Source of the DNA: Gammaproteobacteria bacterium
GTDB lineage: Bacteria > Pseudomonadota > Gammaproteobacteria > SURF-13
NCBI GenBank assembly: GCA_030680605.1
Contig: JAUXUQ010000002.1
Coordinates: forward strand, 257,536 to 321,535
Length of the DNA: 64,000 nucleotides
Direction: 5' to 3'
Positions 4,270-7,086 of the stretch are shown here, one piece after another (the stretch's first letter is position 1; every line of letters begins with the position of its first letter). The position numbers and the translations under genes were made by a program. A model generated the notes under the pieces. The model was not told the DNA's origin and did not search any database. It saw only the letters and a list, made by a program, of their open reading frames with translations.

Positions 4270-4277
4270 AAAGATGT
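4270..4277. repeat. Left 8-bp target-site duplication AAAGATGT
   Basis: Identical octamer at 7073-7080, immediately outside the right inverted repeat. Confidence 0.8.
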
Positions 4278-4303
4278 GGCATATATCCCTTGACAGCAAG
4301 TAA
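4278..4303. repeat. Left terminal inverted repeat of the IS1595-like element
   Basis: 26/26 match to the reverse complement of 7047-7072. Confidence 0.85.
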
Positions 4304-4349
4304 CGCTTAGTCCACACTTAGCCTACACAACCAAGTATGGGCTAACGCC

Positions 4350-5234
4350 ATGAAATACACCTTTAAACAATTTCAATCACAGTACCTGGATGACGATGCT
4401 TGCTTAGCCGCCATTATGAAAAGGCGCTACCCGGTAGAGGATGCCTGCCCACACTGCGGCATAGTCGGTAAACTTACGCGCATAGAGGGCCGACGCGCTT
4501 TTGCATGCAAAGAGGGTTGCCATATATACCCCTGCGCTGGCACCGTGTTCGAAAAATCGAGTACCCAGCTTACGCTGTGGTTCCATGCCATGTACCTGAT
4601 GACCGCTACACGTAATGGCGTGTCAGCCAAGGAGCTACAGCGCCAGCTTGGCGTGACCTACAAGTGTGCGTGGCGCATCGGTCATCAAATCCGTGCGCTC
4701 ATGTCCGCTAGGGATAAAGCAAACAATCCCGGCAAGCTGTCAGGTCATGTAGAGATTGATGAAACATTTGTCGGCGGTAAGATCAAAGGCAAAGGGCGCG
4801 GCAAAGGCGCATACATGCTAAATAAGACTACTGTATTCGGTATGGTTCAGCGCGGCGGAGTTTTACGTAGCGGTGTTGTACCAGATGAACAAAAGCAAAC
4901 ACTGCTGCCAATCATACAGGAGCATGTTTCGCCTGGTACTACGGTATCAACTGACACACACAGAAGCTATCGCTCACTTGGCAAGCTCGGCTTCGATCAC
5001 GAATCCGTAAACCATCAGATTGAGGAGTGGGTGCGTGGTGACTGCCATACAAATACGATTGAAGGCTTCTGGTCACACTTGAAGCGCGGCATCAAAAGCA
5101 CTCATGCCTCTGTATCACCAAAGCACTTGCAAAGGTATGTGGGAGAGTTCGCTTTCCGTTATAACAATCGCCATGCTCCGGCTGATATGTTTCAACGGAT
5201 GTTGGCGCAGATCAGCAAGCCTATTTCTTCTTAA
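4350..5234 (+). CDS. IS1595 (ISXO2-like) family DDE transposase with an N-terminal zinc-ribbon
   Basis: 294 aa. N-terminal CPHCG...C..C zinc-ribbon, then the DDE core ...VEIDETFVGG...VSTD...NTIEGFWSHLKRGIKSTHASVSPKHLQRYVGEFAFRYNNR, characteristic of IS1595/ISXO2 transposases. Confidence 0.88.
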   Translation: MKYTFKQFQSQYLDDDACLAAIMKRRYPVEDACPHCGIVGKLTRIEGRRAFACKEGCHIYPCAGTVFEKSSTQLTLWFHAMYLMTATRNGVSAKELQRQLGVTYKCAWRIGHQIRALMSARDKANNPGKLSGHVEIDETFVGGKIKGKGRGKGAYMLNKTTVFGMVQRGGVLRSGVVPDEQKQTLLPIIQEHVSPGTTVSTDTHRSYRSLGKLGFDHESVNHQIEEWVRGDCHTNTIEGFWSHLKRGIKSTHASVSPKHLQRYVGEFAFRYNNRHAPADMFQRMLAQISKPISS

Positions 5235-5560
5235 CCCCCAACACAGCATCGTCTAGCAGGGATTCGAACCTCTGCTGGTGATTTTGGGGGCTATTCACAA
5301 CTGCCGCCCTTTTTGAAGCCTCTCTTTTACTTCGCTCACAACTCTTTTTTTTCTTGTCTGTCGCAGACCCTAAATTATGTTTTGTCATAATTTTCAATTA
5401 GTTATGTAAATATAGACACTTTCTCAGCCCTCTCTTTCCTCTCTTTCCTTGCTCTGCAAAACAAAAGGGCCAAGCTTGCGCCCAGCCCTTCTGTATGGTA
5501 CACTTCCTATTGCAAACTCCAAATTGGTGCCACGGCTATAGTGCCGTGTAATAGTTCAAG

Positions 5561-5655
5561 GGCGGGATGGCAGAGCTGGCTTATAGCATCCGACTTCTAA
5601 TCGGACGGGGTGTGTTAGTAGCACACCCCCAAGGGTTCGAATCCCTTTCCCGCCG
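5561..5655 (+). tRNA. Unusual long-variable-arm (type II-like) tRNA-like gene. 7-bp acceptor, 5-bp T-arm, 8-bp V-arm stem, anticodon loop CTTCTAA (anticodon TCT). D-arm non-canonical. No CCA encoded.
   Basis: Acceptor GGCGGGA/TCCCGCC pairs perfectly. T-arm AAGGG-TTCGAAT-CCCTT. Anticodon stem TCCGA/TCGGA. V-arm GGGGTGTG-ttagtag-CACACCCC. TCT with a long V-arm is not a standard bacterial isoacceptor type. Located inside the mobile element cargo. Confidence 0.45.
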
Positions 5656-5688
5656 CTACTTTACCTCTATAAACAATGAGGGATTCGA

Positions 5689-6264
5689 ATGGATATTCTA
5701 TCAACAAATGAATTGATTGCGCAAGACCTAGCTGTAATAAATGAGCAAATTACCTTCCACGAGAAGCGTGCCGCGTCAACCAAGTCTAATGACTGGAGAC
5801 AGAAACTGCATTTACAAACAGCAGAAAAACTCCGCTCCGTCTCTGACCACATTATTAAACTGCAATCTGACCTAGCCGAGGCCACAAATTGCCCCAAGCC
5901 TATCAAAATCGGCAACCAGCTATCCCTTAATTACGCGGAGCTTAAGGGGTTGCCTGATGAACTTATACAAGAACTCAGCATAGACACTGATCGCACCGAG
6001 TTCACAATCATAGAGTTGATTGATGAGGCGGGGGGTCTTTTATCGCTAGATAAAATACTCGTCGGTCTGTACAAAAAAACGGGCGACATCCATAAACGAA
6101 CGCTTCTAAATAACCGTCTTTATCGGATGGTTCAACGCGGCGAATTATTCAGCGTGAGCGGTAAAAAGGGTGTCTACTCGACGCGAGTGCTCAGCGACAA
6201 TGAAATGGAAGAAATACTCAACTATAAACCACGTATCGACAAGGGCGCGGAGGACTTGCCATGA
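5689..6264 (+). CDS. Hypothetical protein (191 aa): N-terminal coiled-coil-like region and a possible C-terminal winged-helix-like region. Passenger gene of the IS element.
   Basis: Low-GC ORF starting 33 nt after the tRNA-like gene. No recognisable catalytic motif. C-terminal ...LSLDKILVGLYKKTGDIHKRTLLNNRLYRMVQRGELFSVSGKKGVYS resembles wHTH folds. Confidence 0.5.
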   Translation: MDILSTNELIAQDLAVINEQITFHEKRAASTKSNDWRQKLHLQTAEKLRSVSDHIIKLQSDLAEATNCPKPIKIGNQLSLNYAELKGLPDELIQELSIDTDRTEFTIIELIDEAGGLLSLDKILVGLYKKTGDIHKRTLLNNRLYRMVQRGELFSVSGKKGVYSTRVLSDNEMEEILNYKPRIDKGAEDLP

Positions 6265-6322
6265 GGCCCTAATGCAGAGGCTAGGTTAGTCATCGCCGCC
6301 GACGCTTAGCCCAAATGGACAA

Positions 6323-6367
6323 GGCTCATATCAGCCCAATCTTTCCACGGACAAACTGATATGAGCC
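6323..6367 (+). other. Perfect 12-bp stem-loop (GGCTCATATCAG...CTGATATGAGCC, 21-nt loop) that directly abuts the second tRNA-like element
   Basis: Read directly from the sequence. Possible terminator or processing hairpin between the 191-aa ORF and the next structured element. Confidence 0.5.
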
Positions 6368-6455
6368 GGAGTGGCACTTACAACTTTGTGGGGTGCGCAG
6401 GAGCCGTCCAGCCTTCCTAGGGTACCGGCGCGGGGTTCAACTCCCCGGCACTCCA
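6368..6455 (+). ncRNA. Second tRNA-like element: 8-bp acceptor-like helix with one G·G mismatch plus a 4-bp T-arm (GGGG-TTCAACT-CCCC). The internal fold could not be resolved by hand.
   Basis: GGAGTGGC...GGGGTTCAACTCCCC GGCACTCC A. An 8/4 acceptor/T-arm geometry is reminiscent of reported non-canonical (allo-)tRNAs. Speculative. Confidence 0.25.
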
Positions 6456-6524
6456 CTTTTACTAACTACGCTTGCCATATTGAGGCTTAAGTGAAGCAAT
6501 TGTCAAGCCAAGAGGATACATCTC

Positions 6525-6695
6525 ATGAGCAAAGTAGCTCCGTTTCATTCAGTAAAACCTAATACCAGTAATGTGCATCATGATAACAATCGGTGCACGG
6601 AAGGGAACAACATCGAAAAGCAAAATTTACGACCGGGTACTGCTGGCCGCCCGCGTTGTAACACCTGCAATCGATTAGCTCAACAAGGGGCTTAA
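6525..6695 (+). CDS. Small hypothetical Cys/His-containing protein (56 aa, MSKVAPFHSVKPNTSNVHHDNNRCTEGNNIEKQNLRPGTAGRPRCNTCNRLAQQGA), possible zinc-ribbon-like
   Basis: Strong RBS AAGAGGA 7 nt upstream of the ATG. Below the ORF-track size cutoff. HH...C...CxxC arrangement. Confidence 0.4.
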   Translation: MSKVAPFHSVKPNTSNVHHDNNRCTEGNNIEKQNLRPGTAGRPRCNTCNRLAQQGA

Positions 6696-7033
6696 GGTAC
6701 CGTTGACCGGTCTTTGGTGGACAGCACCATTTCCCACCAAGGGCCGGTCAACATCCCGTCCATAACCCTGTAAGCAAGCTGAACGCCATATACGGGCAAG
6801 CCGTAATCTTTGGCAACCGCGTATGCTTTAAATCCTGCCGCCGTATCACCGTGGAATCTTATAGTAGGCTCTGTAAAAGCATGCCCATTACCTCCCTCAC
6901 AAGACTCAAAGGTTTCGATCCCGCCACGGCGGAGAATTAATACCGCCCGTCTGATCCCAGAATCTAGCTCTAAATCCGTTACCGGCGTAAAATTTTCCAG
7001 ATCATCATTATCAACCTTACCAAGGTGGTTCAT
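6692..7033 (-). CDS. Hypothetical protein (113 aa), passenger gene adjacent to the right IR
   Basis: ORF with a start 14 bp inside IRR. Convergent with the small Cys protein. No family recognised. Confidence 0.4.
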   Translation of the reverse strand: MNHLGKVDNDDLENFTPVTDLELDSGIRRAVLILRRGGIETFESCEGGNGHAFTEPTIRFHGDTAAGFKAYAVAKDYGLPVYGVQLAYRVMDGMLTGPWWEMVLSTKDRSTVP

Positions 7034-7046
7034 ATTTTCCTATTTA

Positions 7047-7072
7047 TTACTTGCTGTCAAGGGATATATGCC
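7047..7072. repeat. Right terminal inverted repeat of the IS1595-like element, followed by TSD copy AAAGATGT (7073-7080)
   Basis: TTACTTGCTGTCAAGGGATATATGCC is the reverse complement of 4278-4303. Confidence 0.85.
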
Positions 7073-7086
7073 AAAGATGTAAAAAA

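Follow-up and report, generated by a model that had tools for sequence, protein, structure and literature searches.

The element described here lies in a 64,000-nt stretch of DNA (the window; positions 257,536–321,535 of contig JAUXUQ010000002.1) from a gammaproteobacterial metagenome-assembled genome (locus tag Q8L89_02765). Window positions 4278–7072 hold a complete insertion sequence (IS) of the IS1595 family, in which a transposase gene (4350–5234, plus strand) is followed by a two-gene module: a class II tRNA of serine architecture with a non-serine anticodon (5561–5656, plus strand) and p191, a gene for a 191-residue protein (5689–6264, plus strand) that begins 32 nt downstream of the tRNA and is its invariant partner. 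Insertion sequences are usually seen as a transposase and little else, and the passengers of the IS1595 and IS1 families are essentially uncharacterised; here the passenger belongs to the translation machinery, being a tRNA expected to misread the genetic code. The initial annotation of this DNA had expected an undescribed mobile accessory system in the 2.8-kb unit, and the cargo is indeed a widespread, undescribed IS-borne module, whose core of a Ser-type class II tRNA and a winged-helix protein recurs in carriers of both the IS1595 and the IS1 family.

A complete IS1595-family element that moved as one unit

The left inverted repeat (IRL; GGCATATATCCCTTGACAGCAAGTAA) occupies positions 4278–4303 on the plus strand, and its exact reverse complement, the right inverted repeat (IRR), lies at 7047–7072 on the minus strand, with all 26 of 26 positions matching both by direct reading and with a repeat finder. 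The 26-bp repeat has no further match in the window at up to three mismatches, and none arose in 100 shuffles. Directly outside the two arms stands the same octamer, AAAGATGT, at 4270–4277 and 7073–7080, which constitutes an 8-bp target site duplication (TSD) around a repeat-bounded unit of 2,795 bp. A near-identical repeat core, ATCCCTTGACAGCAAGT, is found in L003, L010 and L016, three further carriers of the module. The initial annotation had already read a perfect 26-bp repeat with an 8-bp duplication from these positions, and the match was present on re-alignment; its placement of the element 6 bp downstream of the stop of the PepSY gene was also correct, the stop codon of PepSY_TM lying at 7087–7089 and the right TSD copy 6 bp beyond it. 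Its estimate of the compositional contrast was too large: the G+C content is 48.4% in the element and 59.5% in the rest of the window, a deficit of 11 rather than about 17 points.

The transposase, of 294 residues, combines an N-terminal Zn ribbon with a DDE domain and matches PF12762 over its full length (1–153 of 153; E 5.4e-45, 153.6 bits against a cutoff of 27), PF12760 (E 1.2e-9, 38.4 bits, cutoff 25.4) and NF033547 (E 4e-62, 209.8 bits, cutoff 75). Together with the terminal inverted repeats and an 8-bp TSD proven by empty sites (see below), these profile matches place the element in the IS1595 family, as originally proposed. No plasmid-borne copy in PLSDB exceeds 45% identity to the transposase, and we therefore regard the element as a new IS, the comparison covering these plasmid-borne relatives. 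A DNA search with the whole element returned no match in a phage collection and, among plasmids, only two short, weak matches. ISfinder lists IS1595 subgroups with passenger genes (ISNwi1, ISNha5), and the window element resembles these in its Zn-ribbon/DDE transposase, its short inverted repeats, its 8-bp A+T-rich TSD and its possession of extra genes; to our knowledge, no tRNA has been described among the passengers of IS1595 elements. Full-text literature searches likewise returned no tRNA passenger of IS1595 or IS1, no transposon-encoded tRNA, no class II tRNA in insertion sequences and no description of the tRNA–p191 module.

Exact-protein look-ups with the element itself return this single context. 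A look-up of the flanking 88-residue protein, on the other hand, led to nine contigs from other sequencing runs (L030–L038) in which the PepSY_TM gene and the 88-residue protein's gene are separated by 33 nt. All nine read exactly as window positions 4201–4277 joined to 7081–7150, with one copy of AAAGATGT and no element, and an alignment of one of them, L030, with the window flanks gave 99.89% identity over 5,687 nt. Since these empty sites are devoid of the entire 2,795 bp, the whole 2.8-kb unit moved, not the transposase alone, and everything between the two inverted repeats moved as one. That the repeats and the TSD are both perfect, and that near-identical strains differ in having or lacking the element, indicates a recent insertion; it is from this presence/absence polymorphism that we infer transposition activity. 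The uninterrupted target site thus bears out the single, recent transposition of the whole unit that had been read from the repeats. An IS1595 member without cargo is generally known to measure about 1 kb, and this is all that speaks after testing for the reading in which only a transposase unit of about 1 kb is mobile, the 1.8 kb behind it being native DNA and the right inverted repeat a chance match or a relic copy; that reading is refuted by the empty sites, which are without all 2,795 bp, and by L010, L016 and L003, which retain the same cargo order inside homologous repeats, and we give it practically no weight.

A serine-type tRNA and its partner p191

The tRNA of the window element is 96 nt long and is called by ARAGORN as tRNA-Arg(UCU), which reads AGA and AGG. 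It scores 49.8 bits against Rfam RF00005 (gathering score 29), and its minimum-free-energy cloverleaf has a z-score of −4.6. The variable arm (V-arm) measures 23 nt and forms a 10-bp stem with one unpaired base on each side, and it is this stem, together with the length of 96 nt, that makes the tRNA class II. The acceptor and T-stems have 7 and 5 bp (7/5), and the D-arm (UGGCAGAGCUGGCUUAUAGCA) has a 3-bp stem and a large loop of the serine type. The tRNA carries the tRNA-Ser identity set, that is, a long V-arm in the serine orientation, G73, G1:C72, G2:C71 and C11:G24, yet its anticodon is UCU instead of NGA or GCU. The anticodon is generally known to be no identity element for seryl-tRNA synthetase (SerRS), so its departure from serine bears on decoding, not on charging; work by Normanly in 1992 reportedly placed SerRS identity in the V-arm and the acceptor, not in the anticodon. 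The paper on the allo-tRNAs makes the same assignment, to V-arm and acceptor rather than anticodon (PMC5389517).

Features of a tRNA-Arg(UCU) are missing from the window tRNA, which has the 23-nt V-arm instead of a 4–5-nt loop and, in our numbering, a C at position 20. Recognition by arginyl-tRNA synthetase (ArgRS) follows an A20 rule, and we know of no bacterial tRNA-Arg of class II, nor of any bacterial Ile, Asp, Val, Lys or Pro tRNA of that class. Tyrosyl-tRNA synthetase needs A73 and a GUA anticodon, neither of which is present here. Canonical bacterial tRNA-Ser, by comparison, shares the D-arm (of the UGGCCGAGCGGYUGAWGGCA type), G1:C72, G2:C71, C11:G24, G73 and the unpaired bases of the V-arm, and differs in being a core gene with a serine anticodon, whereas the tRNA here is transposon-borne and has a longer V-stem (10 bp in the window).

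Covariation, profile and anticodon counts were all determined over a family of 40 distinct tRNAs lying upstream of p191 homologues. In their alignment, 97.5% of cells are paired as the 7/5 cloverleaf requires, with compensatory double changes at 21 of its 24 pairs; it reaches a covariation score of 0.717, where shuffled controls score 0.21 and slid ones no more than 0.14. Every member has a 7-bp acceptor and a 5-bp T-stem, with the helices 99–100% paired as 7/5, and pairing in the 5-bp anticodon stem reaches 98%, each of its five pairs showing compensatory changes. U33 is shared by 39/40 members and a purine at position 37 by 38/40, with G37 in some of those that read CUN and CCN; CCA is encoded in 28/40. 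G1:C72 and G2:C71 do not vary, G73 is found in 30 and C11:G24 in 31 of the 40, and the V-arm, of 14–25 nt, keeps one unpaired nucleotide on each side. When a profile built from these 40 tRNAs was scored against five class II tRNAs of E. coli, the best match was tRNA-Ser(UGA) (serT; 46.9 bits), followed by tRNA-Ser(GCU) (37.6 bits), tRNA-Tyr (37.3 bits), tRNA-Leu (8.7 bits) and tRNA-Sec (selC; 1.7 bits).

Positions 34–36, by contrast with this body, are unconstrained, and the anticodon is the most variable part of the molecule. Sixteen types occur among the 40: GUC seven times, UAG six and the ochre anticodon UUA five; UCU, GCG and UAA three times each; UAU, UGG and UAC twice each; and GAU, CAA, AUC, UUU, AGG, GCU and UGA once each, so that 38 of the 40 members carry a non-serine anticodon. 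At least 21 anticodon switches are needed on the p191 tree, and UUU and UUA are found in elements whose p191 proteins are 76% identical. The ochre version is carried by L046, L057, L059, L066 and L069; position 73 is A in four of these five tRNAs, and the p191 gene ends in TAA in four of the five. As judged from these alignments, selection evidently keeps the tRNA body, U33 and purine 37 while the anticodon switches often. Because the anticodon stem, U33 and the purine at 37 are preserved, these RNAs appear to be read on ribosomes and not merely processed.

The protein p191 consists of an N-terminal helical hairpin, a coiled coil, and a C-terminal winged helix, an arrangement that supports a dimeric nucleic-acid-binding protein, the dimer being probable, and that looks like a DNA-binding regulator rather than a known antitoxin. 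It has no match above curated thresholds in Pfam, NCBIfam or PADLOC, and a marginal one in PHROGs (phrog_26691, function unassigned; E 0.0012). A word-indexed search found 21 relatives, and an exhaustive profile search 1,043 cluster representatives at E ≤ 1e-3, 174 of them at E ≤ 1e-30; a search of plasmids gave one weak match. The partner family thus comprises more than 1,000 representative clusters, none of them annotated. All close full-length homologues with sufficient upstream sequence have a class II tRNA of 86–98 nt located 3–90 nt upstream on the same strand. The more distant homologues L022, L023, L076, L079, L082 and L027/28 are without an upstream tRNA, and all of these except L022, beside which none was detected, adjoin an IS1595-type transposase. 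This distribution suggests for p191 a primary role as an accessory protein of insertion sequences, with the tRNA acquired in one large branch of the family.

Twelve nucleotides upstream of the tRNA, at 5531–5548, lies a palindrome, CACGGC-TATAGT-GCCGTG, which is a candidate operator over a −10-like hexamer or, alternatively, may be a hairpin with a −10-like loop. It is kept in L003, L010 and L011, where its arms change symmetrically (CAGGC/GCCTG, CATGGC/GCCATG; alignment A3). Further upstream, between the transposase and tRNA units, a G+C hairpin with A/T runs on both sides (about 5456–5492) is terminator-like in both directions; it too is kept in alignment A3 and has a sub-threshold, ctRNA_p42d-like Rfam match on the minus strand.

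Many bacteria of soil, peat and water carry the module, enclosed in bounded elements of the IS1595 or the IS1 type. A search for other copies, as suggested at the outset, found on the 1.2-Mb contig L010 a second, diverged copy with homologous inverted repeats, its own TSD (AATTTTTT) and the layout IR–transposase–tRNA–p191–small ORFs–IR, where ORF denotes an open reading frame. The IRR of the IS1595-type carrier L016 is almost identical to that of the window element, and L003 and L007, also IS1595-type, have a common IRR and differing flanks. In IS1-family carriers, a PF03400 transposase lies directly downstream of p191. Two of these are bounded by repeats that enclose a small ORF, the tRNA, p191 and the transposase: L014, with a perfect 23-bp inverted repeat (GGTAGTGTCTCAGTTTGAAATTG) and an 8-bp TSD (GCAGGCCC), and L019, with a 22-bp inverted repeat and an 8-bp TSD (CGGCAAGC).

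Also of note, L014 has an extra ORF inside its repeats (7361–8002), which resembles ClpP/head-maturation proteases (phrog_94, E 7e-22); cargo beyond the tRNA–p191 core therefore varies. At both ends of the 2.6-kb contig L074, back-to-back pairs of IS1-type inverted repeats (25–74 and 2504–2553) suggest tandem or nested copies of an element that carries tRNA(UGA).

In IS1595-type carriers, the module is followed by a second conserved RNA region, RNA2, which is non-coding and extends for about 200 nt after the p191 stop (6265–6463, plus strand). Matches were found by nhmmer in L010, L011, L016, L095 and L096, and RNAalifold on the six sequences gave compensatory changes in 24 of 49 pairs. The 5′ part (6279–6367, plus strand) contains two covarying hairpins at 6279–6311 and 6323–6367. 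The 3′ part is a 66-nt element (6390–6455, plus strand) that resembles tRNA-Ala and transfer-messenger RNA (tmRNA), with an acceptor GGGGUGC/GCACUCC, a normal T-arm and a short stem that closes a 7-nt loop, UUCCUAG; a U-tract follows its 3′ end. G3:U70 is present in 6/6 sequences and A73 in all, with covariation at 5–68 and 7–66. The combination of G3:U70 and A73 is the alanine identity set common to tRNA-Ala and tmRNA, and the distant homologue L076 has the same acceptor type, G3:U70 and A73 plus an encoded CCA (2995–3095). The 7-nt loop varies as UUCCUAG, CUCCUAA, CUUCUAA and CUCGUAA, and might serve as an anticodon loop (CCU) or resemble an anti-Shine-Dalgarno sequence. No ARAGORN call was obtained for the 3′ element, and its Rfam match, which is mascRNA-like, stays below threshold at 22.8 bits; the D and anticodon regions are degenerate, and the middle region folds inconsistently between homologues. 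With the tRNA-like domain of tmRNA and with tRNA-Ala minihelices it shares the GGGG...CUCC-A acceptor, G3:U70, A73 and a standard T-arm, whereas it differs from tmRNA in being without a tag-peptide frame or pseudoknots, in having only about 66 nt between the acceptor strands, and in its degenerate D and anticodon arms. RNA2 could be a second suppressor-like RNA, of the Ala type, or an element for processing or termination, or could serve in both ways.

Two tRNA-like elements had been proposed behind the transposase, and this count held in part: the plus strand carries the full tRNA at 5561–5656 and the degenerate tRNA-Ala-like element at 6390–6455, and a T-arm look-alike at 5258–5280 is probably no tRNA relic. 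We had considered this look-alike as a relic or an attachment site and rejected it, as it lies inside a conserved antisense ORF (see below) and a terminator scan identifies it as the transposase terminator hairpin.

Proposed function and its alternatives

The explanation that we favour, with a rough probability of 0.6, is a composite one, in which IS1595 transposition spreads a tRNA–p191 module that would act as a p191-regulated, serine-inserting suppressor. Its transposition part is near-certain; its decoding part, which draws on sequence comparison, is held with moderate confidence. The most likely mode of action would be regulated missense or nonsense suppression by serine insertion, at AGA in the window element and at other codons or UAA in its relatives. 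We envision that a single promoter, at the palindrome that directly precedes the tRNA, would drive both the tRNA and p191, and that RNase P and 3′ processing would free the tRNA. The host SerRS, which does not read anticodons, would then charge it with serine, and the tRNA would decode AGA as serine at a low level. Binding of p191, a probable dimer, to the palindrome would result in autoregulation and so keep the suppressor at a tolerable level. In relatives, the same scaffold would have been turned towards other sense codons or the stop codon UAA. The gain to the element may lie in an addiction-like or stress effect on the host, in interference with competing DNA, or in a coupling to transposition.

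Natural tRNAs of comparable design have been described. The allo-tRNAs (Mukai et al. 2017, NAR 45:2776) were found in soil and sediment metagenomes, have serine identity with 35 anticodon types, of which UAU, GCG and GUC are the commonest, and have been suspected of a link to transposable elements (PMC5389517); those that combine serine identity with leucine anticodons inserted serine in E. coli (PMC7609411, PMC5389517). The tRNAs here are like them in their long V-arm, in G73 or U73, in their predicted serine identity and in their diverse non-serine anticodons, including UAU, GCG, GUC, leucine and ochre types. They differ in the body: in allo-tRNAs the acceptor/T-arm is divided 8/4 or 9/3, the D-stem is long and capped by a tetraloop, and the anticodon stem is longer too, whereas the family here has 7/5 with a 3-bp D-stem and a 5-bp anticodon stem. 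An 8/4 or 9/3 fold is impossible for our tRNAs and they have no tRNA-Sec-like D-stem, so that, measured against the published description, we rejected allo-tRNA membership. A fixed p191 partner and residence in bounded IS1 or IS1595 elements are likewise found here and not in the allo-tRNA paper (PMC5389517). By analogy, our tRNAs may nevertheless work like allo-tRNAs though they stand outside that class. Candida tRNA-Ser(CAG), the nematode nev-tRNAs and Streptomyces tRNAs of the tRNAProX type also join an anticodon-blind synthetase to a new anticodon, with ambiguous decoding as the result (PMC11415595); these cases are chromosomal and lineage-specific with a fixed anticodon, whereas here the tRNA is mobile, has a dedicated protein and has changed its anticodon repeatedly.

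Several observations weigh against the suppressor explanation. In the 40 p191 ORFs, and also in 14 downstream ORFs taken as candidate transposases, three of which proved to be unrelated proteins, we mapped every codon to which the resident anticodon is cognate. Programmed recoding of the element's own genes was rejected, as these codons occupy alignment columns in which the standard amino acid is conserved, for instance GAY at an invariant Asp in loci with GUC, and the single AGA of the window's p191 at a conserved Arg. The 40 p191 ORFs showed no shared serine column and, in loci with UUA, no in-frame stops, and the 14 downstream ORFs no shared recoding site and no consistent p191–transposase read-through frame. 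With no recoding site found, the element is without an obvious need for a suppressor, and efficient serine insertion would damage its own proteins. Anticodons with G34 (GUC, GCG, GAU) read codons that are abundant in the host, and such versions would be expected to be toxic if they were not expressed at a very low level or charged by the synthetase cognate to the anticodon. Ten of the 40 tRNAs have A73 or U73, and the A73 of four of the five ochre versions points to leucine rather than serine; the window tRNA itself has an A12·A23 mismatch in its D-stem. As for regulation, the binding of p191 to the palindrome is a guess, the winged helix being a generic fold, and since a sigma-70 scan upstream of the tRNA called no consensus promoter, the promoter at the palindrome is one that we infer.

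Part of this evidence fits an ordinary codon-supplementing tRNA, charged with the amino acid that its anticodon specifies, here arginine, that would aid an A+T-richer element in a G+C-rich host in the way of phage-borne tRNAs. AGA and AGG occur at 1.1 and 3.1 per 1,000 codons in the host, where AGA is the rarest Arg codon, and at 7.0 and 8.4 in the element, about 3–6 times more; U34 anticodons of other loci match host-rare codons as well (CTA 1%, TTG 1%, TTA 0% and ATA 8% of their families). The cognate codons in p191 stand at positions kept for the standard residue, and many synthetases are generally known to read the anticodon. What makes this reading unlikely is that one Ser-like class II scaffold underlies all 16 anticodon types, that position 20 of the window tRNA is C and not the A20 of ArgRS, that five members have an ochre anticodon and so supplement nothing, and that GUC and GCG read codons already abundantly decoded by the host. 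We think it a little less likely still that the tRNA and RNA2 are processing or insulator signals, RNase P/Z punctuation that would excise the mRNA of p191, or of p191 and the transposase, and block read-through from outside while the anticodon drifts neutrally. Such punctuation would account for the bracketing of p191 by a tRNA and a tRNA-like element in IS1595-type carriers, for the position of the IS1-type tRNA between the small ORF and p191–transposase in one orientation, for the absence of any recoding need and for the variability of the anticodon; yet RNase P/Z need only the acceptor and T-arm, and the pairing of the anticodon stem, U33 and the purine at 37 are preserved to the extent given above, as are the serine identity set and the encoded CCA, and G37 occurs in some CUN and CCN readers as it does in real decoders.

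The least probable of the functional alternatives, and one that we regard as quite improbable, is that the tRNA acts as a decoy or antidote or belongs to a toxin–antitoxin-like pair, for example as a cleavage-resistant stand-in for a host tRNA that anticodon nucleases attack, or as a toxic tRNA neutralised by p191. The anticodons UUU, GUC, UCU, GCG, GAU and UAG overlap with what we take to be known targets of anticodon nucleases, the fast switching of the anticodon resembles an arms race, and allo-tRNAs adjoin toxin–antitoxin systems, with a link to transposable elements suggested (PMC5389517). No toxin, nuclease or PADLOC defence family was found in or beside the module, however; the ochre versions have no host tRNA to replace, and p191 has the appearance of a regulator noted above. 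Searches of p191 and the element's small ORFs against PADLOC, Pfam and NCBIfam returned no toxin, antitoxin or defence family.

Going beyond serine-inserting suppression by the module as such, one may speculate, tentatively and with some doubt, that IS1 and IS1595 elements carry a "decoding-editor", in which a Ser-charged class II tRNA, retargetable to nearly every sense codon or to UAA and in some elements joined by a second, Ala-type tRNA-like RNA, is restrained by a winged-helix protein. If this were true, mobile elements would deliberately reprogramme host translation, as a weapon of addiction or competition or as a transposition-linked trigger, and allo-tRNA-like suppressors would gain a biological context. 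More generally, if the tRNAs are active, mobile elements can spread codon-specific mistranslation or stop read-through between bacteria, with a bearing on the stability of the genetic code and on the annotation of metagenomes. The window locus is a clean and bounded case of recent mobility in which empty sites serve as a control, the tRNA body is canonical and the gene partner is defined, and the family could offer synthetic biology compact, naturally orthogonal-looking suppressor scaffolds.

Other passengers and the insertion site

A small antisense ORF of 58 residues (5221–5397, minus strand) overlaps the 3′ end of the transposase gene by 14 nt. Its counterparts in L003, L010 and L011 (alignment A7) keep a C-terminal motif, F-x-x-L-L-D-D-A-V-L-G-V, and it has no family match in Pfam, NCBIfam or PADLOC. 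In IS1-type carriers, the tRNA is preceded by a small basic ORF (KRPRDPNQLAKLIADIATGE...); homology between the two ORFs was considered and rejected, the hhalign probability being 0.2%.

Downstream of RNA2, two convergent genes form a separate two-gene cassette and are additional passengers. One is orf56 (6525–6695, plus strand), whose 56-residue, Cys-rich product (VHHDNNRCTEGNNIE...RPRCNTCNR) has a VHHDNNxCTEGNNIE motif; the other is orf113 (6692–7033, minus strand), of 113 residues, which belongs to a large unannotated family with 542 homologues, none of them with a Pfam domain. Scans of the small ORFs against defence and phage families gave nothing useful. In L098 and L101, convergent ORFs of 56–65 residues that are 61–79% identical to orf56 abut homologues of orf113: the L098 pair (481–975) lies on a phage-like contig with terminase and portal genes, the L101 pair (169–706) on an IS1595-linked contig. 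The position of orf56 is taken in relatives by small GIY-YIG-like ORFs (L010, 8804–9022; L011, 2314–2529; L016, 1254–1598), of which that in L016 has a weak Pfam match (E 0.003).

The host tRNA-Asn(GUU) at 3495–3570 lies about 700 bp from the insertion and is not its target; their nearness looks coincidental. The element sits inside the 33-bp spacer between PepSY_TM (7087–8826, minus strand) and the membrane-like ORF of 88 residues (3984–4250, minus strand), a same-strand pair located downstream of a TonB-dependent receptor gene, and the insertion may be polar on the gene for the 88-residue protein.

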